The notes under the pieces are model-generated. The model ran no database searches. It had not been told where the DNA came from and saw only the letters and a list, made by a program, of their open reading frames with translations. DNA of 64,000 nt from Chloroflexota bacterium (GTDB taxonomy: Bacteria; Chloroflexota; Dehalococcoidia; DSTF01; RBG-16-68-14): assembly GCA_022562155.1 (NCBI GenBank), contig JADFPV010000003.1, positions 412 through 64,411 of the forward strand, given 5' to 3'. A program made the translations under genes and the position numbers. Shown here piece by piece: positions 1,490-30,493 of this stretch. How positions within the stretch are numbered: the first letter of the stretch is position 1; each line of letters opens with the position of its first letter.

Positions 1490-2002
1490 ATGGGTGACGT
1501 AGCAATCCAACAATTGCTCTACCTCATGGACGAAGCGTTCAAAGCACATGGCGAGCACGGCGAGCACACGCTGCTTAACAACCTGCGCTCCGTCCAAGAC
1601 AACGACTGGCACTGGCTGCCTCCCAACGGCGGCCGCTCGATCTTCGACATCGTCCAGCACGTCGGCGAGTGCAAGTATGTATACGACAGCCACGCCTTCG
1701 GCGACGGTTCGATGCGTTGGGACAGACCAGGCACGATCCCATCGATCGACAGCGCCGCAAAAGCTCCCGACATCATCGTGTGGCTCAGGGAAGGCCAGCG
1801 CGCCCTGATAGAGAACGTCCAAGCGCTTGGTGATGACGAAGAGTTGCTTAAGCTCCGCAAGGCAAACTGGGGCGAGGAGTATGAGACGCGCTGGCTGATC
1901 AATACCATGATCCAGCACGACCTCTACCACGCCGGTGAGATCAACCACCTCCGTTCGCTCAAGCAAGAGACCGACAAGTGGGCCTGGCAGTTGGAGCAGT
2001 GA
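1490..2002 (+). CDS. DinB/YfiT-family (DinB_2-like) metal-dependent protein
   Basis: Three-His pattern (HGEH near N-term, HVGECKY, HDLYHAGEI near C-term) typical of DinB superfamily. Stop codon lies 1 nt before the next start. Confidence 0.55.
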   Translation: MGDVAIQQLLYLMDEAFKAHGEHGEHTLLNNLRSVQDNDWHWLPPNGGRSIFDIVQHVGECKYVYDSHAFGDGSMRWDRPGTIPSIDSAAKAPDIIVWLREGQRALIENVQALGDDEELLKLRKANWGEEYETRWLINTMIQHDLYHAGEINHLRSLKQETDKWAWQLEQ

Positions 2003-2003
2003 T

Positions 2004-2849
2004 ATGACGCTGCGCGTGGGCTGGTTCTCAACCGGCCGCGGCGATGGCTCGCGCCGGCTGCTGAAAGCGGCCACGGACGCTATCGGCGCGGGCGATCTCG
2101 ACGCGGAGATCGCGTTCCTGTTCTGCAATCGCGAACGCGGCGAGTACGAGGCAACAGACGGATTCCTGGACCTCGCCGAATCGCACGCCATCCCAACCAT
2201 CAGGCTGTCGTCACGCCAGTTCCGCCGCGATCGCGGTGGCGCTCTATCGAAGCCTGGCGAGCCGCTGCCGGCGTGGCGAGCCGAGTACGACGGCGAGGTC
2301 GCAAAGCTCCTTGAGGAACACCCATTCGACGTCGGCGTACTCGCCGGCTACATGCTGATCTTCACGCCGGAGATGGCCGACCGGTATCCGTTCCTCAACC
2401 TGCATCCGGCGGAACCCGGCGGGCCGATAGGCACCTGGCAACAGGTCATCTGGGACCTGATCGATGCGCGCGCCACACAGAGCGGTGTGATGATCCACAT
2501 GGCGACCGACGAACTCGACCGCGGTCCCATCGTCTCCTACTGTACATACCCGCTAGGCGGGGAGGCGTTCGACGCGCTCTGGGACGACGTCGGCGCGAAG
2601 ACGGCCGCCGGCTTACGGGCAGCGGCCGGTGAAGAGCATCCGCTGTTCTTGGAGATCCGCCGGCACGGCGCCGCGCGCGAGCTGCCACTCGTGATCGAGA
2701 CGTTGCGCGCGTTGTCGCAGGCCCGCGTGCAGGTCAACAATCGGCGCGTCGTTAACGGCCAAGGCGACCCGCTCGCAAACGGCCTCAACCTCACGGCGGA
2801 GGTGGAGACAACTATCGCGCCCGCGATGCGTAAGCGCAAACAGACCTGA
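2004..2849 (+). CDS. PurN-like formyltransferase (phosphoribosylglycinamide formyltransferase family)
   Basis: WFSTGRG...NLHP....GVMIHMATDELDRGPIV aligns with the PurN SGRGSN...NIHPSLLP...HFVTEELDGGPII motifs. ATG at 2004 follows the DinB stop. The upstream extension in the ORF track was rejected. Confidence 0.6.
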   Translation: MTLRVGWFSTGRGDGSRRLLKAATDAIGAGDLDAEIAFLFCNRERGEYEATDGFLDLAESHAIPTIRLSSRQFRRDRGGALSKPGEPLPAWRAEYDGEVAKLLEEHPFDVGVLAGYMLIFTPEMADRYPFLNLHPAEPGGPIGTWQQVIWDLIDARATQSGVMIHMATDELDRGPIVSYCTYPLGGEAFDALWDDVGAKTAAGLRAAAGEEHPLFLEIRRHGAARELPLVIETLRALSQARVQVNNRRVVNGQGDPLANGLNLTAEVETTIAPAMRKRKQT

Positions 2850-3095
2850 GGGGTACTACTCACTGGCGTCACGCCCGACGCATGCGCGTGCCCTCTGGGC
2901 ACGGGCGCCGTCCTTGGCGATTATCTCAAGATGAGGCCCGTGCCAGTGACTGGTGGCGAGGATCTGACACGGGCCGCAGGTTCAGTACTCGGTAGGAGGT
3001 CCTTTCCTATTAAGTTCTGCGTCCTGCACTACGTATAGTAAGGGAATGGGGCATGTAGGAGCAAGCGCCCACACTTATGATCAGTTGAATGGCCT

Positions 3096-3509
3096 ATGTC
3101 AACCAGCTATAATTGCCGAACCGTGAACGAACCCCGTTCCCCGCTGGATCCCGTCGCCTGCGGCCGATGTGAGGCCGTCTGTGAGATCGACGACAACTTC
3201 TGCCGCAAGTGCGGGTTGTCGCTTCGGGTCAGCGAGAACCTCCCTTCAGTACGGTCCAGTTCGCTCCCGGTCATCAGGCAACCGTCTGTGCCCGCCGTCG
3301 TCGTGCGCGGCGCCGCGTTCGTCGCCGCTGGAAAGATCGCGGAGATCATCGCCAGGCGCATGGTGCGCAGCGTGTTCCAGCGCAGCAACGGCTCCAAGAA
3401 CCTACCGGCCACGGCGAAACAGGGCGAGGTCGTCCCACGGGATGACATGGCGGAGACCACGGTGATCAGCGAAACGCTCCTGACGCGTCGAATTCATTTC
3501 CGCCGCTAG
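3096..3509 (+). CDS. hypothetical zinc-ribbon protein
   Basis: CGRCEAVC...CRKCG double CxxC zinc-ribbon at the N-terminus. No other recognisable domain. Confidence 0.3.
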   Translation: MSTSYNCRTVNEPRSPLDPVACGRCEAVCEIDDNFCRKCGLSLRVSENLPSVRSSSLPVIRQPSVPAVVVRGAAFVAAGKIAEIIARRMVRSVFQRSNGSKNLPATAKQGEVVPRDDMAETTVISETLLTRRIHFRR

Positions 3510-3622
3510 GCGCGGCGCGGGCGGCCCGGCGGAACGGGCCCATATCTCTCCATCAGGGCAGGATGCCCTTCACGTAACTCGCGAGGAAGGCGTGGCGGAC
3601 GTTCCGATGCGTCCGCGCAACG

Positions 3623-6060
3623 ATGGGGAAGGCGAGCATGACGGTGCGCGCATGGTTGCGCTGGCCGGCGTTGGTGGCGCTCGGCGCGGTGCTGGTTCTC
3701 ATCGCCCTCCAAGGCAGCCTCGGCGCGGACGAAACACGAACCACCTGGGACTTCGAGGGCGCAGACGCCCTGGACGGCTGGGTGCGGTTGAACGCGACCA
3801 TGACCCTTGCGCCGGGCGAAGGTGCAGAGGGTTCCCAGGCTGCCGGCATCACGCTAAGGAGCCCAAGTAATATTCCCATCAGACGCGTCCTAGCTGAGAT
3901 TTGGTACCCCTTGGATGTCCAGCCGGGCGCCACGTACGAGTTTGGCGGCGTGTACGTATCCGCAGACGGCAAGATCGATTGGGTCCGGCTCGGCATGCGA
4001 CTCTACGACAAGCACGGCAACCCATTAGCTGCGGACGTCGGCCCCCATTCCTCTATTCCTGGCAAACTGCACCTAGAGGCCGCGCCGAACCTCTGCTCCG
4101 TAGTGGAAATACATTTCCGAGTGCTTACGTACGGCGCAATAGACGCAACGGTCTACCTGGACAACCTCTCCCTCAAAGAGAGCGCGCCCGCGACTCCGTG
4201 TCCCACGCCCATCCCGTCGCAGACTCCGACAGCGACGCCAGTCCCGTCGCAGACTCCGACATCGACGCCAAGCCCGTCGCAAACTCCTACATCGACACCC
4301 GTCCCGTCGCAGACTCCGACATCGACGCCAAGCGCATCACATACGCCAACCTCGACACATACGCCAAGCCCGTCGCAAACTCCTACATCGACACCCGTCC
4401 CGTCGCAGACTCCGACATCGACGCCAACGCCTTCCCACACTCCCGCTGCGACCGCGACGGCATCGCAGACGGCCAGCGATCAGCCCGCTACCGCGACCAA
4501 CACAGCGCCTGGCGCGACGGCAACCGAGCCGCCACCCGCTCCAGCGTCGTTGGAGTTCTCCAATGGCGGTTTCGAGGAGGGGGGGACGGCGAACCCCATG
4601 CCTGGAAACACTTCGGCGGGGTGCTGATGCAGACAGGCACGCCGGCGCGCACCGGCTCGTGGGCAGGTGCGCTCTTCAGTTCGACCGACAGCACCAAATG
4701 GGCGTTCCAAACGGTGAACGTTGAGCCCGCCGGCTGGTACGAGTTCCATGCCTTCGTCTACCACGACGACCCGTGGGTGGAGTCGGCGCTACTGCGCATA
4801 TCGTGGTATGCCAGCGCCAACGGGAGTGGCAGCGCCGTCGCCGCCGTCGACTCAACAGACCTGCTCGCGTCGCCCGCGCCGGAGTTCCGCCGCCTCAGCA
4901 CAGGCCCGGAAATGGCGCCGCCGGGCGTTCACTCGGCGAAGGTGCGCGTGCTCATGCGGCCCCGCGACGGGACTAGCGCCGTGATCTACATCGATGACGC
5001 TTCGTTTGACAACGTCGCAGCCCCGATTCCGCCGACGAGCACCCCCACGCTCGCGCCACCGACCACCACGCCCACGCCGGCCTCGACCTCGACGAACACG
5101 CCCACCGCTCAGCCCACAACCGTACCAGCCAGCCCGGCGCCGGCCGACACACCACAGCCGGCGGATACGCCACCGCCAGCGGACACGGCCACACCAGTTC
5201 CGGCGGCTACAGCCACCAACGCTTCGACGTCGACACCCGAGCCAGCGAGCATCCCGTCCGCACTCACCAACGCGGGCTTCGAATCCGCAGTGGAAGGGGT
5301 CCCGGTCGGGTGGCGGACGTTCGGTGGGCTGCTCATGCAGGTCGATTCGCCGGTGCGATCGGGCGCGGCGGCCGGCGGTTTCTTCAGCTCCAGCGGCAGC
5401 ACGAAGTGGATCTACCAGACGGTCGCCGTCGAGCCGGCAGCCTGGTACCAGTTCGACGCCTTCGTCTACCACAACCACGCGTTCGTCGATGAAGCGCTGC
5501 TGCGCATCTCCTGGTACGCGAGCGCCGATGGCAGCGGTAGCGCCCTCGCCAGCGTCGATTCGACCGGCCTGCTCGCTTCTCCCGAGGCTCGCTACCGGCC
5601 GCTCACCACTGGCCCTGTGCAGGCGCCGCCGGGCGCGCGCTCCGCCAAGCTCCGCATCCTCATGCGGCCCCGCGACGAGAGGAGCGCGCTGATCAACGTC
5701 GACGACGTTTCGTTCGGGCGCGTCGCCGCGCCGGCCGTCGCGCCATCGACACCGGCACCGGTCAGCGCAGCAGCATCTTCCCGAGTGCTATCTTCCTTCG
5801 AACCCGCCGCGCCATCGGTCAGCAACCAGCGACCAGCGACCACCAACCAGCGACCAGCGACCACCAACGAGCGACCCTCTCACGCCCCCATGCCCGCGCC
5901 CGTGCTCCGACGCCACGCCCTACAGACACCGGAGCCACAGCCCGATCGCGAGGGCGACCCGCTCTGGCCGTGGGCCCTCCTCGGCGCGACGGCAGGAGCG
6001 GGCGTTGTAGGTTGGGCGGCATACTGGGCGCTGCGGCGGCGACGCGATGCAGTAAACTAG
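3623..6060 (+). CDS. secreted multi-CBM4/9-like repeat protein with Pro/Thr linkers and C-terminal TM anchor; reading frame interrupted at a G7 tract (possible pseudogene or sequencing error)
   Basis: Signal peptide MGKASMTVRAWLRWPALVALGAVLVLIALQG. Three about 150-aa modules beginning NGGFE/NAGFE..GW (CBM_4_9-like), separated by PSQTPTSTP linkers. The frame switches from frame 2 to frame 1 at 4579-4585 (ggggggg). Ends with hydrophobic helix plus RRRRD. Confidence 0.6.
4205..4445 (+). repeat. tandem 30-nt coding repeat (cccgtcgcagactccgacatcgacgccaag, about 7 copies) encoding PSQTPTSTP linker
   Basis: Direct visual tandem repetition in sequence. Confidence 0.8.
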
Positions 6061-6109
6061 CAGGCGACTTTCGTTTTCGACAGCAGCAGCGAAGATCAAG
6101 CTCTCGAGC

Positions 6110-7008
6110 TTGAGCGAGGAGGATGCTATGGAAATCGGCACGTGGGAAGTCACCAGCGAACTCAACGAGATCTACCAGCAGGCGAGAGACTTGGGACTGG
6201 AGCCCAACATCGCGGAGCTGGACGCGTACGGATTTACCGTGATCGAGAACGCCCTCTCCGATGAGGTAACCGATCAACTGGCGGAAGCTGTGCTACGCGT
6301 CGCGGAGAAACGCACCGGGACGAAGCCAGACACGACGACCGGAGAGACGCATCAAGGTCTCCAGCTTCAGATGGGTCTGCTATTCAAGACCGCATCTTCG
6401 AGGAGGTTCTGATGGAAGAGCCGGCCCTCACACTGATCACCTATTTGCTCGGCAAGAGCTGCGTGCTCTCCAGCGTCGCCTCGCACTTCAAGGGGCCCGG
6501 CGGCGGGAATCGCGGGCAGCTCGCCCTGCACAGCGACATTCAGGGTAATGGCGTGCCGGTGCCCCTGCCCGGGTACGCGCAGGTCGCCAACTGCAACTAC
6601 GCGCTCACCGATTACACCGAAGCCGATGACGGTGTGCTCGCCATGGTGCCGGGCAGCCACAAGCTGTGCCGCTACCCGGACGAATGGGACCTGCGCAAGA
6701 GTAAGCAGGCCATCCCTGTCCTTGCTCCCAAAGGCTCCGCCATCATCTTTCACGGCAACACGTTCCACGGCTCCTATGAACGAATGAAGCCCGGCTTTCG
6801 GATCAATCTCTCCTACTACTTCTGCCGCCATTACATGGACCCGACAGAAGGCTTTCGAGACACCGTTTCGGAGGAGATGCTCGAGCGAAACAACGAGCGA
6901 TTCGCCACGCTCATGGGAACGACCCGACCTCGCGGCTGGAGCGAAGCGAATCAAGACTTGTCGGGAGTCGCGATTCGCAGCCGGCTTGCAAAGAACCAAT
7001 ACCTATAG
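6110..7008 (+). CDS. phytanoyl-CoA dioxygenase (PhyH) family protein, split into two frames (6110-6412 frame 2; 6412-7008 frame 1)
   Basis: First ORF has the PhyH N-terminal motif YGFTVIENALSDEVTDQL. Second has ...LLG...LHSD (HxD) and GSAIIFHGNTFHGS (distal His). Frame 1 stays open upstream of 6412 and encodes a DRIFEEVL..LLG-like motif, so a frameshift lies about 6290-6380. Confidence 0.55.
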
Positions 7009-22138: not shown

Positions 22139-23023
22139 CTACCCGATCGTCGCGGAGGCGTTGGAAATGACGGGCTCGCCGCGTTCGGCCGTCGTCGCCT
22201 GGACCAGTACTTTACCGTCCGATTCGTTCCAGATCCGCGTCACGATCGTCTCACCTGGGAAGGCGACGCCGGAGAACCGCACCTCGAATGCCTTCAACTT
22301 AGCCGGATCGCCGTCGCAAACCGCGTGCAGTACGGCTCGCCCGACGTAGCCGAAGGTGCAGAGGCCATGAATGATCGGCTTGTCGAAGCCGCCCATCTTC
22401 GCGAATTCGGGGTCGATGTGGAGCGGGTTGCGGTCGCCCGACAGGCGGTAGATCGCCGCCTGGTCCGGCGAGGTCTTGTACTCGACGGTGTGGTCCGGCT
22501 CCCGCTCAGGCGGGACGTTCTTCTTGGAGGCGCTCGGCCCGCGATCGCCGCCGAAGCCACCCTCTCCGCGGAGAAAGATGCCAGACGTGTTCGTAAAGAG
22601 GACGTTCCCGCTCTCGTCTTTCGTGTCTACGGAGATGCTGACGAGCGCGCCGGAGCCCTTGTCGTAGATGCCCGTGATCTTGCCACCGGTCGTCAGCTTG
22701 CCGCTGGTCGGGATGGGGCCGTTCAGCGTGATGCTCTGCTCGCCGTGCAGGAGCATCATCGGGTTGAACTTTATGTACTTGCCGATACCACCGAGCGCCG
22801 GGAACGCCGGGATCACGCCGAAGGTCGGCAGCGTCTGGAGGTTCTTCTCGTAGACGAAGTTCAGCTCGTCCGCCGTCGCGCCGACGCCGAGGGCGTAGAG
22901 CATGACATCGCGGTCGGTGTACTCGAAGGTGGTTTCCGGCAGCTCCTTGCCGACAGCAGAGGCATCGATGGCCATGAGTTGTTCCTCCTCAGATTCAAAC
23001 TCGGTGCCCACGGATTCTAGCAA
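22139..23023 (-). CDS. MaoC-like (double hot-dog) dehydratase
   Basis: 294 aa, two hot-dog halves, MaoC-type motifs (H..LCTFG...). Confidence 0.65.
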   Translation of the reverse strand: MLESVGTEFESEEEQLMAIDASAVGKELPETTFEYTDRDVMLYALGVGATADELNFVYEKNLQTLPTFGVIPAFPALGGIGKYIKFNPMMLLHGEQSITLNGPIPTSGKLTTGGKITGIYDKGSGALVSISVDTKDESGNVLFTNTSGIFLRGEGGFGGDRGPSASKKNVPPEREPDHTVEYKTSPDQAAIYRLSGDRNPLHIDPEFAKMGGFDKPIIHGLCTFGYVGRAVLHAVCDGDPAKLKAFEVRFSGVAFPGETIVTRIWNESDGKVLVQATTAERGEPVISNASATIG

Positions 23024-23110
23024 GGGTGACAGGACAATGGGAAGAGTCTATATTGTAGACGATTGACAGCCCTCAGCAGTGAGACAACGCGGGAGGCGGA
23101 AGGTTCGAAC

Positions 23111-24232
23111 ATGCCAGGCAACAACGGAACGGTAGAGGCCAGACTTGAACCACAAGCAGAGCTTCAATTTGACGAGAGAAACCCGCGCCTTCTGGAGCAG
23201 CTTCGAAAGAACGGTACAGGCATCTCGCAGGAAGACATCATCCGGATACTTTGGCGCGAGTTCGCCGTTGACGAAGTTGCCATGTCCATCGCCGCGAACG
23301 GCTATTTCCAGCATGAACCGCTTTTCGTCACACGCGACGACGATCATCTGGTCGTAGTAGAGGGTAACCGGAGACTCGCCGCCGTGCGGCTGCTCCTAAA
23401 CAGCAACCTGCGACGCCAGCTTGGAGCAACAGATCTCCCTCGGATCACCGAACGAGTACGACGCGGTCTGCAGGAGATTCCCGTTATCGAGTGCCAACGC
23501 AATGCTGTTTGGGAGTACATTGGGTTCAAGCACGTAAACGGACCGCAGGCTTGGCAACCGGTCGCAAAGGCCGGGTACATCGCTTGGGTGCGGAACACGC
23601 TCAAAGTCCCTCTCGACCGGATTGCAAAACAGATCGGCGATCAGCATTCTACGGTTCGCCGACTTTATCGCGGCCTCATGGCCCTCGAGCAGGCCGAAGT
23701 AGCCGGTGTGTATGACCGCGAAGAACGCTGGAGAGCGCGCTTCGCCCTGTCACACCTCTACACAGGACTCGACTACCCTAGCATTCAGAAGTTTACGGGA
23801 ATTTCGGGTGAGGCCAGTTACTCGAAGCGGCGACCCATTCCGAAGAGGAAGATCAAGGAGTTCGGCGAGCTGTGCATCTGGCTCTACGGCAGCAAGACCA
23901 AGGAACAACCACCGATTGTGCAGCGTCAGAATCCTGACCTTAGGAATCTCGCCGAGGTGCTGGGAAGCAGAGATGGCCTAGCTGCGCTACGTAAGGGATT
24001 GCCTCTCCAAATCTCGTTGGACATTAGCAAAGGCGACGAACAGTTATTCAGAGAAGCGCTTGTTGCCGCGAAGCAGTCGCTCCAGGACGCGCGCGGAAGA
24101 CTCATAACGGGCTATGAGGGCGAACCCGACCTCTTGGACACCGCGGAGGACATTCGGGAACTCGCTGTCGACACCCACAAGGCGATGATAAAGGTTCACG
24201 ACTCGCGCCGGAAGAAGAGGCGCACAGGGTAA
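23111..24232 (+). CDS. ParB/Srx-like N-terminal domain protein (alternative start 23063)
   Basis: HLVVVEGNRRLAAVRLL arginine-containing ParB-box-like motif. RBS gggaggcggaagg lies before ATG 23111. Region GC is clearly lower than its flanks. Confidence 0.55.
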   Translation: MPGNNGTVEARLEPQAELQFDERNPRLLEQLRKNGTGISQEDIIRILWREFAVDEVAMSIAANGYFQHEPLFVTRDDDHLVVVEGNRRLAAVRLLLNSNLRRQLGATDLPRITERVRRGLQEIPVIECQRNAVWEYIGFKHVNGPQAWQPVAKAGYIAWVRNTLKVPLDRIAKQIGDQHSTVRRLYRGLMALEQAEVAGVYDREERWRARFALSHLYTGLDYPSIQKFTGISGEASYSKRRPIPKRKIKEFGELCIWLYGSKTKEQPPIVQRQNPDLRNLAEVLGSRDGLAALRKGLPLQISLDISKGDEQLFREALVAAKQSLQDARGRLITGYEGEPDLLDTAEDIRELAVDTHKAMIKVHDSRRKKRRTG

Positions 24233-24247
24233 CCTCCTGGAACAAGA

Positions 24248-25195
24248 ATGACACAGATACCCGCTGCGCCTGCAGCTTCGGCACCTCCAGAGAAACATGC
24301 GGACTGGCTAGAACTGCTAGCCCTCAGTTCGCCCGACAAGAACAGTTCGTTTCAGGACCTAATCAAGGAATTCAGGCACTCTGGATCGGTTGATGCCCTT
24401 GGGGAGGACGATTCGGTAGAGAAGTTTACCGATAAGGGCTCCGAACGCAGTCAGCTTCTAGCTGAAGAGGCTTTTAACGAGATCAGCGACCGCCACGACG
24501 CCTGCGGGATCGTTGCGAGCAGCTATGCGTTCGACATAAGCGCTCAATACATTCAGGCACGCCAGCAATACGACCAGTCTATCTACGCGTTTCTTCTCTT
24601 GCTAAGTAAGTTCGGAAAGGATGCAGGACCAGATACTATCGACCTGCTCGATCTGTTCGACAAAATCAGTGGGTCCGCTGCTAGCGAGTACATGGGTGGT
24701 CCGACGGCTGGGGTACAATTCTACTTGTTTGGCTTCCCACGAAGGGTAGCACCACCAGGCTTTCGAGATGCCCTGGATGATCTGTGTAACAGGCTTGGAG
24801 AGGGCGGCGGCTCTAAAGACGGCCCAACCAGGAAGAACCAGAAGGACGCCAAGTTAGACATAGCCGTGTGGCGAGCGTTCAATGATGGCCGTGTTGGCAA
24901 GTTCATCGGGTTCGGTCAGTGTGCAACGGGGGAAGATTGGCCTAAGAAACTAACGGAACTCCAGCCCACCAATTTCATTAAGAAATGGATGCATAAACCG
25001 CTCGCCGTGGATCCGATTAGGTTGTTCTTCACTCCTCACCGAGTACCGTATAGCGGGTGGGAGGATGATTCGATTGACGGCGGAGTACTGTTCGACCGCT
25101 GCCGAATTTCTGCGCTCACGAGAGATCTGGACGATACATTAGTCCGCGAGTGCAGAAAGTGGACTAGGTTCGTCATCAGGAAGCACCTCAAGTGA
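24248..25195 (+). CDS. hypothetical protein (possible nuclease partner)
   Basis: 315 aa, no confident motif. Stop overlaps the next gene's GTG start (coupled). Confidence 0.45.
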   Translation: MTQIPAAPAASAPPEKHADWLELLALSSPDKNSSFQDLIKEFRHSGSVDALGEDDSVEKFTDKGSERSQLLAEEAFNEISDRHDACGIVASSYAFDISAQYIQARQQYDQSIYAFLLLLSKFGKDAGPDTIDLLDLFDKISGSAASEYMGGPTAGVQFYLFGFPRRVAPPGFRDALDDLCNRLGEGGGSKDGPTRKNQKDAKLDIAVWRAFNDGRVGKFIGFGQCATGEDWPKKLTELQPTNFIKKWMHKPLAVDPIRLFFTPHRVPYSGWEDDSIDGGVLFDRCRISALTRDLDDTLVRECRKWTRFVIRKHLK

Positions 25196-26283
25196 GACAT
25201 CGCTTTCACGCATTGTGCCCATACTTCTCGATGTTCCCAGAGAGTTTTGCGGAGAAGTGGATCGAGACGCTTACAGAACCAGGCGACCTAGTGCTCGATC
25301 CCTTCTGCGGCCGGGGAACAGCACCGTTCCAAGCGCTACTCATGCGGCGACAGGCCATTGGGAGTGACGTCAATCCAGTCGCATACTGCGTCAGCCGCGC
25401 AAAGACGAACGCCCCGGCGGCATCTCAGCTGCGGCGGCGTCTCACGCTGCTGGAGAAGCACTTTGAACCAGCCGAGTGGGAGAAACAGCGGAAGGCTCTT
25501 CCCAGCTTTTTCAGGCTGGCGTTCGCCCCAAGGACCTTAAGGCAATTGCTCTTCTTGCGCGCGGAACTACGCTGGTCGTCCTCTAATGTGGACGCGATGA
25601 TCGCAGCGCTGACTCTGGGTTCTCTACACGGAGAAATGTCCTCGCCATCATATCTGAGCAATCAGATGCCTCGAACAATCAGTACGAAACCAGGGTATTC
25701 GGTGAAGTACTGGAAGGCCCATGAACTGATGCCGCCCACACGCGACACGTTTGGCCTGCTCCGGACGCAGCTAGCATACCGCTACGCGTCCGATCCCCCC
25801 GAAGACTCTGCGACGATTTTCCACAGAGACTTCAGGATGTTACCGACCATCGTCGGAAGTCTACCGAAGCCTCCTCGTCTCGCTATTACGTCGCCTCCCT
25901 ACCTGGACGTCACAAGCGCAGAGGAAGATCAATGGCTCAGGCTATGGTTCCTCGGGGGCGCACCGGAGCCGACCTACGGCGTCGTGTCGCGAGACGATCG
26001 CATAAGTGACCGAAATCAGTACTGGGCCTTGATCGCAGACATGTGGAGAGTTCTAGGAAGTGTCCTCGATGAGAATGCTGATGTGGTGATACGCATCGGT
26101 ATCAAGTCGATGAAACCTGGTGAGCTGGTAGACGCCGTCGAAGCAAGCTCAGCATTCAGCGGCCGCCCAACGACGCTGGTTCATCACGAGTCCAGTGCCA
26201 TCGCACGACGCCAAACGAATGCGTTTCATCCGGGGACTAAGGGTGTGATGGTCGAAGTCGACTGCCACATCCACATGGCATAA
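25192..26283 (+). CDS. DNA amino-methyltransferase (N4-cytosine or N6-adenine), alpha-like motif order
   Basis: DPFCGRGT (motif I, FxGxG) near the N-terminus and ITSPPYLD (motif IV, SPPY) about 200 aa later. Confidence 0.65.
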   Translation: MRHRFHALCPYFSMFPESFAEKWIETLTEPGDLVLDPFCGRGTAPFQALLMRRQAIGSDVNPVAYCVSRAKTNAPAASQLRRRLTLLEKHFEPAEWEKQRKALPSFFRLAFAPRTLRQLLFLRAELRWSSSNVDAMIAALTLGSLHGEMSSPSYLSNQMPRTISTKPGYSVKYWKAHELMPPTRDTFGLLRTQLAYRYASDPPEDSATIFHRDFRMLPTIVGSLPKPPRLAITSPPYLDVTSAEEDQWLRLWFLGGAPEPTYGVVSRDDRISDRNQYWALIADMWRVLGSVLDENADVVIRIGIKSMKPGELVDAVEASSAFSGRPTTLVHHESSAIARRQTNAFHPGTKGVMVEVDCHIHMA

Positions 26284-26304
26284 AGGCGGTGGTCGCTAGC
26301 CGGA

Positions 26305-27015
26305 TTAGTTCGTGGTGAGTGCCAACGTAGGCATCGGGTCGAGCCGGATCGCCGGGCCCATGCTCGTGGTCAAGAAGATGCTCTTGACGAACTGGCCCTT
26401 CGTCTGTTCAGGCCTGGCCTTGGCGATCTCTTGCATCAGCGTCGCAAGGTTTTCCATCAGCTTATCCTCGTCGAAGCTGGCCTTCCCGATGGGTGCGTGC
26501 ATGATCGATGTGCGGTCCAGGCGGAACTCCACCTTGCCTTGCATCGCGTCTTGGACGGCCTTCTGCACACCGTCCGCGTCAACCACCGTACCGGCGCGAG
26601 GGTTCGGCATGAGCCCACGCGGGCCGAGTACGCGGCCAAGCTTGCCTACTTTGCCCATCAGCTCTCGCTGGGCGAGCGCGACGTCGAAGTCGGTCCAGCC
26701 GCCTTCGACCTTCGAAATCAGATCGTCGCCACCGACGTGCTCAGCGCCTGCCTCTTCCGCGATCCGGGCGGCGTCTCCTTCAGCGAACATGAGCACGCGC
26801 ACCGTTTTGCCGAGACCATGGGGCAGCAGGGCGGTGCCTCGCAACTGCTGCTCGGCATGGCGCGGATCGAGGCCCGTGCGGATGTGCAGTTCGATCGTCT
26901 CGTCGAACTTTGCGAAGGCGATCTCCTTCGCCAGCTTGACGGCCTCTTCGGGGGCGTAGGTCTTGGTCTTGTCGACCAGCGCTGCCCTCTCCTTGTAGTT
27001 CTTCCCGCGCTTCAT
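26305..27015 (-). CDS. rplA: 50S ribosomal protein L1
   Basis: Full-length L1 similarity (KNYKERAALVDKTKTYAPEEA...). Confidence 0.9.
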   Translation of the reverse strand: MKRGKNYKERAALVDKTKTYAPEEAVKLAKEIAFAKFDETIELHIRTGLDPRHAEQQLRGTALLPHGLGKTVRVLMFAEGDAARIAEEAGAEHVGGDDLISKVEGGWTDFDVALAQRELMGKVGKLGRVLGPRGLMPNPRAGTVVDADGVQKAVQDAMQGKVEFRLDRTSIMHAPIGKASFDEDKLMENLATLMQEIAKARPEQTKGQFVKSIFLTTSMGPAIRLDPMPTLALTTN

Positions 27016-28889: not shown

Positions 28890-30089
28890 TTACTCCAGAA
28901 TCTTCGTGAAGACGCCGGCGCCCACGGTGCGGCTGCCCTCGCGGATGGCGAAATGCAAACCCTCTTCCATGGCGACGGGCTGAATCAGCTTGATCTTCAT
29001 CTTCGTGTTGTCGCCCGGCATCACCATTTCGACGCCCTCTTCCAGCTCGATCTCACCAGTAACATCGGTCGTACGGATGTAGAACTGCGGGCGGTAGCCT
29101 TTGAAGAATGGTGTGTGGCGTCCGCCCTCTTCCTTGGAGAGAACATAGATCTCGGCCTCGCAGGTGGTGTGCGGGGTGATACTGCCGGGCGCGGAAAGCA
29201 CCTGGCCGCGCTGGATCTCTTCTCGCTCAACGCCACGGAGCAGGCAACCAACGTTGTCTCCGGCTTCGCCCTGGTCCAGCAGCTTCTTGAACATCTCGAC
29301 ACCAGTGACGACGGTCTTGCTGGTCTCCTTGAGGCCGACGATCTCAATCTCCTCGCCGACGTTGATCACCCCACGTTCGATCCGGCCGGTGACGACGGTG
29401 CCTCGGCCCTTGATGCCGAAGACATCCTCGACAGGCATCAGGAACGGCTGGTCCTTGGCGCGCTCCGGCAGGGGGATGTGTTCGTCAAGCGCCTTCACCA
29501 GCTCCCAGATGCTCTCGTATTCCGGGGCATCCGGGTCTTCGCTTTCGCTCTCCAACGCCTTGAGGGCGCTGCCGCGGATAATCGGGATGTTGTCGCCGTC
29601 GAAGTCGTACTTGGTAAGTAGTTCGCGCAGCTCCAACTCAACGAGGTCCAGCAGCTCCGGGTCGTCCATCATGTCCACCTTGTTGAGGTAGACGACCATA
29701 CTCGGAACTTCGACCTGCTTGGCGAGCAGTACGTGCTCGCGCGTCTGTGGCATCGGGCCATCAGGGGCGGCAACTACGAGGATGGCGCCGTCCATCTGAG
29801 CGGCGCCGGTGATCATGTTCTTGATGTAGTCGGCGTGACCCGGGCAGTCTACGTGTGCGTAATGGCGGTTCTCCGACTCGTACTCAACATGAGCGATAGC
29901 GATCGTGATTCCGCGTTCGCGCTCTTCCGGCGCCCTGTCGATGCTAGCGAAATCACGATACGACGCCCAACCCTTCAAGCCGAGTACCTTGGTCATAGCT
30001 GCGGTGAGCGTAGTTTTTCCGTGGTCAACGTGGCCAATGGTGCCTACGTTAACGTGCGGCTTGGTTCGCTCATACTTCTCTTTTGCCAT
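28890..30089 (-). CDS. tuf: elongation factor Tu
   Basis: [28 protein letters not shown]. Start set at the MAKEK ATG (30087-30089) preceded by GGAGG. The 41-aa upstream extension in the ORF track was rejected. Confidence 0.95.
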
Positions 30090-30167
30090 TACGTTGCTTC
30101 CTCCTTGTTCCTTCCTCCGAGCCTTCAGGCGGTTCCGGGCTGTTCTTGCCCGCTTACCTTTTTCACT

Positions 30168-30242
30168 TGGAGCCCACAATCGGGATTGAACCGATGACCT
30201 CGCCCTTACCAAGGGCGTGCTCTACCACTGAGCTATGTGGGC
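30168..30242 (-). tRNA. tRNA-Thr (anticodon GGU)
   Basis: Manual fold: acceptor GCCCACA/UGUGGGC, anticodon loop cUUGGUAa, T-loop GGUUCAAUCC, CCA encoded. Confidence 0.8.
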
Positions 30243-30313
30243 GCAGTATGCGCCAGAGCCGAACGCCCTTCTCTCTAGATTTTGGCCCTTCCAGCTTCCG
30301 GCGTCAATCTCAC

Positions 30314-30401
30314 TGGTGGAGGGGGCAGGATTCGAACCTGCGTAGCCCGTCAGGGCAACGATTTTACAGACCGCCGGTTTTAGCCACTCACCCACCCCTC
30401 C
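30314..30401 (-). tRNA. tRNA-Tyr (anticodon GUA), long variable arm
   Basis: Acceptor GGAGGGG/CCCCUCC, anticodon loop CUGUAAA, T-loop GGUUCGAAUCC, 88 nt. Confidence 0.8.
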
Positions 30402-30417
30402 GTAATTAGTTAGGTGG

Positions 30418-30493
30418 TGGAGCCCGCGAGGGGATTCGAACCCACTAACCTGTCGATTACAAATCGACTGCGCTACCATTGCGCCACGCGGGC
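30418..30493 (-). tRNA. tRNA-Thr (anticodon UGU)
   Basis: Acceptor GCCCGCG/CGCGGGC, anticodon stem GUCGA/UCGAC with loop UUUGUAA, T-loop GGUUCGAAUCC. Confidence 0.8.

Follow-up and report, generated by a model that had tools for sequence, protein, structure and literature searches.

A three-gene cassette encoding a ParB-like protein, a putative nuclease and a DNA methyltransferase in a Chloroflexota genome: a candidate restriction–modification system from a widespread, unnamed family

In a stretch of 64,000 nucleotides of contig JADFPV010000003.1 from a Chloroflexota bacterium (hereafter, the window), three tightly packed, co-directional open reading frames (ORFs) occupied positions 23063–26283 of the + strand (Table 1). 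They encoded a ParB-like protein (gene 1), a putative nuclease (gene 2) and a DNA methyltransferase (MTase; gene 3). A first-pass annotation of the window had placed three such genes between maoC and rplA, with a 21-nt spacer before the latter and an overlap between the gene 2 stop and the gene 3 start, and the ORF analysis confirmed this layout; the overlap of the GTG of gene 3 with the TGA of gene 2 was 4 nt. The maximal ORF of gene 1 extended over 23063–24232 with a TTG start. The ATG at 23111 is the likely start, since its product was identical to a protein on record from a Chloroflexi metagenome-assembled genome (MAG) and since similarity to relatives began there.

The cassette differed from its surroundings in composition. 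Its guanine–cytosine (GC) content was 56.1% (57.0%, 53.5% and 57.1% for genes 1, 2 and 3, respectively), versus 62.6% and 62.2% in the 10-kb flanks and 62.4% in the whole window. Among all 3.2-kb stretches of the 64 kb, it ranked lowest in GC (0.5th percentile of sliding windows), approximately 6–7 percentage points below its surroundings. The low-GC island described in the first-pass annotation was therefore present, but its contrast had been overstated, being 56% against 62–63% rather than 50–53% against 65%. GC at the third codon position was 0.59–0.65 in the island genes and 0.76–0.86 in seven neighbouring genes. The codons AGA, AGG and ATA, already pointed out earlier, were indeed enriched: AGA and AGG together made up 27 of 92 arginine codons in the island versus 8 of 151 in the neighbouring genes, and ATA occurred 8 times in the island versus 8 times in 2.5-fold more neighbour codons.

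Table 1. Positions of the cassette genes, their candidate motifs and the surrounding features. Residues are numbered within the respective protein.
Feature	Sequence	Position	Strand	Details
Gene 1	window	23111–24232	+	373 aa from ATG at 23111
FDERNPR	window	23168–23188	+	gene 1 residues 20–26; D21, N24 and R26 invariant in family alignment
EGNRR	window	23360–23374	+	gene 1 residues 84–88; E84-G85-N86-R87-R88 all invariant in 73 sequences
Gene 2	window	24248–25195	+	315 aa; 15 nt downstream of gene 1
Predicted PD-(D/E)xK-fold domain of gene 2	window	24695–25192	+	approximately residues 150–315
Candidate active site of gene 2	window	24839–24949	+	D200, D204, Q224-C225-A226, K234
Gene 3	window	25192–26283	+	363 aa; GTG start
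DPFCGRGT, motif I (S-adenosylmethionine binding)	window	25297–25320	+	gene 3 residues 36–43
SPPY, motif IV (catalytic)	window	25891–25902	+	gene 3 residues 234–237
Acquired segment	window	23026–26298	.	without nucleotide homology to related contig L089 (blastn, tblastn, ORFs, Pfam, GC)
Promoter candidate, sigma-70-like	window	23026–23054	+	GTGACA-17-TATATT, 10/12; in 87-nt gap 5′ of gene 1
MaoC-like flanking gene	window	22139–23023	-	87 nt from the start of gene 1
rplA flanking gene	window	26305–27015	-	21-nt spacer after gene 3
Short-chain dehydrogenase gene	L089	838–1773	-	Pfam adh_short 1.8e-41; native GC 68%

In its AlphaFold model (predicted local distance difference test score of 89), gene 1 has a ParB-N nucleotide-binding fold followed by a KorB/ParB-type helix-turn-helix (HTH) DNA-binding domain; the C-terminal region is helical. 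The segment VVVEGNRRLAAVRLL (residues 81–95) contained the invariant EGNRR motif, and in a profile alignment GNRRL fell on GERRL of Helicobacter pylori Spo0J (4umk). This alignment suggests that EGNRR is the equivalent of the ParB Box II 'GERR' arginine patch, which binds a nucleotide triphosphate, and that a nucleotide may be involved in cleavage. Further upstream, FDERNPR presumably corresponds to the N-terminal 'NPxxPR' motif of ParB (Box I). Gene 1 had the ParB-N fold with the GxRR patch that marks the ParB/Srx superfamily, in agreement with the ParB/Srx-type assignment made at first, and was not a canonical ParB. The Pfam search returned no family at E ≤ 1, neither ParBc nor DUF262. In NCBIfam, TIGR00180 scored 16.3 bits (cut-off 58.45) and TIGR04285 scored 14.9 (cut-off 315); a canonical ParB or Noc identity, which the first-pass annotation had named among the outcomes that would count against its proposal, was rejected on these scores. 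No ParA partner was encoded in the window neighbourhood (maoC, gene 2, gene 3, rplA) or at the other loci examined. Twenty PD-Lambda-5_A models of PADLOC matched residues ~31–188 of gene 1 (best 1.1e-14). An R-x4-H motif (RFALSH) was present in the window copy, but its arginine was not conserved in the family, and a HEPN domain was rejected. We propose a role for gene 1 within a restriction enzyme, as the subunit that reads the DNA or acts as a switch.

The high-confidence model of gene 2 comprised an N-terminal helical domain and a C-terminal domain with the PD-(D/E)xK nuclease fold; a fold search assigned it a restriction-endonuclease-like fold. No significant match was found with Foldseek in the PDB. 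VC1899 ranked first (E 2.5e-3, TM-scores poor), ahead of Can2, Cdn1 and Card1; all four are CARF plus PD-(D/E)xK proteins, which is weakly consistent with the predicted fold. No model of Pfam, NCBIfam or PADLOC recognized gene 2, a match to DUF4817 being attributed to chance, and its profile retrieved only a chance match to MetE among the PDB sequences. Gene 2 contained the motifs QKDAKLDIAVW (residues 198–208) and GFGQCATGE (residues 221–229), and D200, D204, Q224, C225, A226, K234, R284 and R286 were invariant in 87 sequences. In the model, D204 began the strand 205–210, and Q224-C225-A226 lay at the end of the strand 218–225. The strand placement of D204 and Q224 fitted the PD and (D/E)xK positions, with the lysine displaced. 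The pattern (D/E)-x3-D ... QC ... K ... FDRxRI was also kept in phage and plasmid homologues with 23–27% identity. A catalytic role is predicted for the candidate active-site residues. The first-pass annotation had offered a degenerate PD-(D/E)xK site at KLDIAVW...GFGQCATGE as a weak guess; the fold search and the conservation in homologues of ~25% identity now strengthen it. Gene 2 is proposed as the catalytic subunit.

Gene 3 matched Pfam N6_N4_Mtase (5.4e-12, 46.6 bits, cut-off 26.7), with residues 11–62 on the C-terminal end of the model, and PADLOC MTase_II (PDLC03325, 4.5e-26) across residues 5–259. Motif I was separated from the downstream SPPY by 198 residues. The beta-class order (PF01555, xPPY before FxGxG) did not apply, since motif I preceded SPPY. 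Among PDB sequences, N4-cytosine MTases matched best, and the alignment of the SPPY segment to them was permuted in order; HMMER placed the SPPY of gene 3 on residue ~45 of a beta-class N4-cytosine enzyme, whose motif I is at ~200. By its motifs, gene 3 is identified as an S-adenosylmethionine-dependent DNA amino-methyltransferase, a permuted relative of the N6_N4 enzymes with alpha order. Its specificity is probably N4-cytosine, because of SPPY and the nearest solved relatives. The motif order had been called unusual in the first-pass annotation; the order itself is real, but the topology is already known, since the PADLOC Type II MTase model aligns in the same order. We propose that gene 3 is the self-protecting modification enzyme.

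The cassette was not specific to the window. A profile search showed the gene 2 family to be large: 2,918 cluster representatives matched at E ≤ 0.001, 2,189 of them at E ≤ 1e-10. The family spans more than 10 bacterial phyla. The hosts included Acidobacteriota, Actinomycetota, Planctomycetota, Chloroflexota, Verrucomicrobiota, Myxococcota/'Deltaproteobacteria', Alpha- and Gammaproteobacteria, Binatia and Hydrogenedentota, among others. Linkage of genes 1 and 2 was counted in 81 loci. The two genes were adjacent and co-directional in 77 of these, the other four being contig ends or decayed copies, and gene 1 was never missing where gene 2 was intact. Neighbour-joining trees of the two proteins were largely congruent. 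Gene 1 was the more conserved of the two in paired comparisons (77% versus 67%, 75% versus 58% and 60% versus 54% identity for gene 1 and gene 2, respectively); a faster divergence of gene 2 in every pair might be expected if gene 2 carries part of the specificity.

The methylase was the variable partner. Among 80 genome loci, an MTase was encoded within 3.5 kb of genes 1 and 2 in 76. A gene-3-type methylase followed in 58 loci, a D12/Dam-class methylase took its place in 17 (downstream and co-directional in 7, downstream and convergent in 5, upstream of gene 1 in 5), and one locus had a different N6_N4 enzyme. In the trees of genes 1 and 2, D12 partners were scattered over at least seven separate positions, and different MTase families accompanied sister cassettes whose identity was 77% for gene 1 and 67% for gene 2. 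Three unrelated MTase families (N6_N4, D12 and, in P2-like phages, C5) were found as partners, in varying position and orientation. A conserved gene 1–gene 2 module with an interchangeable methylase is typical of a restriction module with a replaceable modification partner. The first-pass annotation had suggested that an acquired operon of a ParB-like protein, a possible nuclease and a methyltransferase is a candidate for an undescribed restriction–modification (R-M) or defence system; the recurrence of the cassette and a related contig that does not contain it (see below) support this suggestion.

Some loci deviated in their gene content. The methylase of L039 (6777–8699), in the complete-chromosome MAG of a sponge symbiont, had a length of only ~120–200 aa, and the next gene encoded a protein with a NOV_C domain; either the restriction pair of L039 is truly orphaned or the assembly is at fault. 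In L027, a glycosyltransferase gene (3415–4566, +; QTMAN_N / GT4-conflict Pfam matches) was located immediately upstream of gene 1; it could encode an alternative modification enzyme or simply be a neighbour with a housekeeping role. An extra ORF without a Pfam family, encoding 446 or 511 aa, separated the methylase from the gene 2 homologue in L037 (7055–8395, +) and L079 (7055–8590, +), respectively. This ORF may add a fourth component to the system, or it may have inserted there without being related to it.

The related contig was L089 (metagenome contig Ga0075324_1000154), from an organism with approximately 80% nucleotide identity to the window; rplA and MaoC were 88% and 83% identical at the protein level. 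Both contigs had the rplA ... maoC-SnoaL arrangement. In L089, the interval between rplA and maoC was taken up by one short-chain dehydrogenase gene, without any trace of genes 1–3, and the nucleotide homology ended at window position 23025 and restarted at 26299. The occurrence of the dehydrogenase gene between the same rplA and maoC identifies the cassette as horizontally acquired at this locus, as judged from the sequence comparison. L089 did not represent a clean empty site, as a gene of native GC content occupied the position; the comparison points to replacement or differential gain and loss, not to a simple insertion. No flanking direct repeats, target-site duplications or terminal repeats were found around the island, where short two-copy repeats looked like chance.

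The flanking genes of the cassette differed in every locus examined. They included recN and steA-like genes on either side of the cassette, haem-biosynthesis genes, an amidohydrolase gene together with toxin–antitoxin genes, and Wadjet jetA. Most of the loci were chromosomal, without an attached replicon or integrase. Conserved synteny with housekeeping genes, against which the first-pass annotation had asked its proposal to be checked, was not seen; the cassette recurred as a unit in unrelated contexts. In L055, the Wadjet JetA gene (2984–4429, +; Pfam 6.4e-47) was directly downstream of the cassette and was followed by more large ORFs, a context that is defence-island-like. In L086, from a Planctomycetota MAG, a gene just upstream of the cassette copy (1639–6741, +) encoded a protein of 1,700 aa with metallophosphatase, NA-iREase3 nuclease, pentapeptide and WD40-type repeat domains, which may be another conflict-system gene.

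Homologues were also present in P2-like phages, where a convergent C5-cytosine MTase replaced the gene-3 type. The phage copies were located between the portal gene Q and the replication gene A, a position known as P2 defence hotspot #1 (PMC9519451). Their gene 1 homologues matched the PD-Lambda-5_A models of PADLOC, down to 3e-24, and PHROGs listed both the gene 1 and the gene 2 family as 'unknown function'. The Escherichia coli prophage version, represented by gp04–gp06 of phage vB_EcoM-12474III and by an identical locus in E. coli O145:H28 RM13514, was compared with 5,426 complete genomes of the species: part of it matched 140, and 36 contained all of it at ≥99% identity. In two P2-like Yersinia phages, the same hotspot contained reduced versions: a shortened gene 1 homologue alone in L-413C (L169), and in HQ103 (L170) ORFs resembling genes 1 and 2, with ~1 kb of unannotated sequence after them.

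Further features of the window were of minor relevance to the cassette. The sigma-70-like promoter candidate has its position as sole support, since the regional number of such matches was no higher than the shuffled expectation. No convincing terminator was found 3′ of gene 3. An antisense ORF of 99 aa (23048–23347, -) extended across the promoter region and the start of gene 1; it is probably spurious, like many overlapping ORFs of the GC-rich window. Beyond rplA lay rplK, nusG, secE and tuf. A cluster of tRNA-Thr(GGT), tRNA-Tyr(GTA) and tRNA-Thr(TGT) was located upstream of tuf (30168–30493, -), and the maximal tuf ORF (28890–30212) entered tRNA-Thr, its 5′ end being over-extended.

We hypothesize that the cassette is a self-contained, horizontally mobile defence system of the R-M type, in which genes 1 and 2 form the restriction enzyme and gene 3 is the methylase, and assign this a probability of roughly 0.65. 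In the mechanism that we infer, gene 3 would methylate a specific motif of the host DNA, and a complex of genes 1 and 2 would attack DNA without the methyl mark. The unmethylated motif would be recognized via the HTH domain of gene 1, the N-terminal domain of gene 2 or both. The PD-(D/E)xK domain of gene 2 would cut the DNA unless methylation blocked it, and the nucleotide-binding N-terminal domain of gene 1 would act as the switch that gates the reaction. Three general features of R-M systems were found: an adjacent methylase with intact motifs, a nuclease fold with conserved candidate residues, and a methylase that is co-inherited yet replaceable, with L027, L077 and L039 as exceptions. A precedent is PD-lambda-5, whose anti-phage activity has been validated by experiment and which has the ParB-N module in common with gene 1. 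A more detailed version treats gene 1 as a nucleotide-gated sliding clamp in the manner of ParB and KorB. The clamp would load at unmethylated sites through its HTH domain, close on cytidine triphosphate (CTP) or another nucleoside triphosphate (NTP), and recruit or activate gene 2, and methylation would block its loading. We consider this version speculative and rather doubtful. If true, it would define a new class of NTP-dependent restriction, communicating along DNA without a helicase or an AAA+ motor, and the ParB-N 'loader' would be the common chassis of PD-lambda-5 (with HEPN) and of the cassette (with PD-(D/E)xK).

Several observations weigh against an R-M system of this kind. Two loci, L027 and L077, had an apparently intact gene 1–gene 2 pair and no MTase detected within 3.5 kb, L039 had a truncated methylase next to apparently intact genes 1 and 2, and no annotated MTase was located near a distant gene 1–gene 2 pair on a plasmid (L167). 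With strict R-M, loci without a methylase would be lethal, unless a protecting methylase is encoded elsewhere or the assemblies are faulty. The putative site of gene 2 is non-canonical, with D...Q-C-A and an invariant lysine ten residues on instead of (D/E)xK, and the identification of gene 2 as a nuclease is a matter of its predicted fold only. In the GNRR patch of gene 1, asparagine replaces the catalytic glutamate of the ParB GERR, which makes nucleotide hydrolysis, unlike binding, doubtful.

Other explanations assign the same genes different roles. PD-lambda-5 is a two-gene P2-prophage system described as 'ParB/HEPN, methyltransferase', with broad validated anti-phage activity (Vassallo et al. 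2022, PMC9519451); mrr had to be deleted from the host, and the authors interpret PD-lambda-5 as a compacted system of restriction–modification and abortive infection (PMC9519451). By analogy, the methylase of the cassette would mark self, and genes 1 and 2 would form a suicide effector that is triggered by infection and degrades host and phage nucleic acid alike, instead of a restriction enzyme selective for incoming unmodified DNA. The N-terminal module that gene 1 has in common with PD-Lambda-5_A speaks for such a combination, as does the use of ParB/DUF262 modules as sensors in several defence systems (PMC12065111); still, we regard it as unlikely. A conventional Type II R-M system, with gene 2 as the sole restriction enzyme and gene 1 as a large KorB-like or C-protein-like transcriptional controller that delays nuclease expression after transfer, seems quite unlikely to us. 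Gene 1 is larger and more conserved than gene 2, it accompanies every intact gene 2, and it keeps an invariant nucleotide-binding patch. The ParB-like module is moreover fused to the effector in PD-lambda-5 and in GmrSD-type enzymes, which argues that gene 1 works as part of the enzyme and not as a regulator of transcription.

A function outside defence, such as maintenance or partition, a post-segregational-killing addiction module of a mobile element, or a methylation-directed repair or regulatory system, appears highly improbable. In favour of such a function, the ParB fold is mostly known for its part in partition, modules resembling R-M systems can act as addiction cassettes, and the window copy lies among housekeeping genes and not in a defence island. 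However, parA was absent and gene 1 did not have the canonical ParB signature (TIGR00180, 16.3 vs 58.45 bits), the cassette was chromosomal without a replicon or integrase in most loci, a restriction-type nuclease fold was present, and the phage copies were found in a hotspot that otherwise holds defence genes. Addiction behaviour would also be compatible with an R-M mechanism and would not be an alternative to it.

If the R-M reading is right, a large R-M family is not recognized by current tools. In genome annotations, gene 2 was a 'hypothetical protein', and gene 1 was either the same or a 'ParB N-terminal domain-containing protein'. The cassette would be the first R-M system with a restriction enzyme built on the ParB-CTPase fold and would link the recently expanded biology of CTP/NTP switches (PMC12704722) with classical host-controlled restriction. 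The ParB module of PD-lambda-5, a validated system whose mechanism is unexplained, would likewise find an explanation. The E. coli prophage version can be cloned and tested directly, and the family could yield new sequence-specific nucleases and methylases.

An operon of a ParB-like protein, a PD-(D/E)xK protein and a methylase was not described in the literature on PD-lambda-5, ParB-CTPases, Menshen, BREX and P2 hotspots, of which our coverage was not exhaustive. The first-pass annotation had recognized no named system; none of those compared here fits the whole cassette, but PD-Lambda-5_A partly matches the ParB-N module, with a different effector. Among Type II restriction enzymes that are heteromeric and have their methylase separate, R.BspD6I (large and small subunits) and BbvCI differ from the cassette in that both subunits have a nuclease fold and neither has a nucleotide-binding module. 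Among NTP-dependent enzymes of two subunits, McrBC also differs: it depends on methylation and has no methylase, and its McrB is an AAA+ GTPase, whereas the NTP-binding fold of the cassette is ParB/Srx. The GmrSD/BrxU/SspE-type systems resemble the cassette in coupling a nucleotide-binding module of the ParB superfamily to a DNA nuclease with a role in restriction, and two-gene variants exist in which one protein has only the ParB-like domain (PMC12373910). However, these systems are Type IV, modification-dependent and without a cognate methylase, whereas the cassette almost always has a methylase; they combine HNH/DUF1524 with a DGQQR DUF262 domain, whereas the PD-(D/E)xK domain of the cassette is on a separate protein. 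Membership in GmrSD/DUF262 (PF03235) was rejected, as there was no DUF262 Pfam match and the predicted nuclease fold was PD-(D/E)xK. With the CTP-gated clamps ParB, KorB and Noc, gene 1 has in common the fold of the N-terminal domain, the GxRR patch and the HTH DNA-binding domain that follows. Unlike these clamps, the cassette has no ParA, and the partners of gene 1 are a nuclease and a methylase instead of a partition ATPase.

The closest likeness was to PD-lambda-5. In both, the first protein begins with a ParB-like N-terminal module and a DNA methyltransferase is encoded alongside, and both occur in P2-like prophages, in the hotspot between the portal and replication genes. In contrast to the two genes of PD-lambda-5, in which HEPN is fused to ParB, the cassette has three; gene 1 and its phage homologues matched only the first ~160–170 of the 430–580 positions of the PD-Lambda-5_A profiles. 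Beyond this module, gene 1 has a DNA-binding domain of the KorB/ParB type, and the presumed effector, gene 2, is a PD-(D/E)xK protein of its own. Membership in PD-lambda-5 was rejected, since the match was confined to the N-terminal module, HEPN was absent and the additional gene 2 had no PADLOC match. Because its phage copies occupy the same P2 hotspot, the cassette is a sister of PD-lambda-5 in which HEPN is replaced by a ParB-type DNA-binding domain. It most likely belongs to a known kind of system, restriction–modification, as a new variant that is widespread and unnamed.

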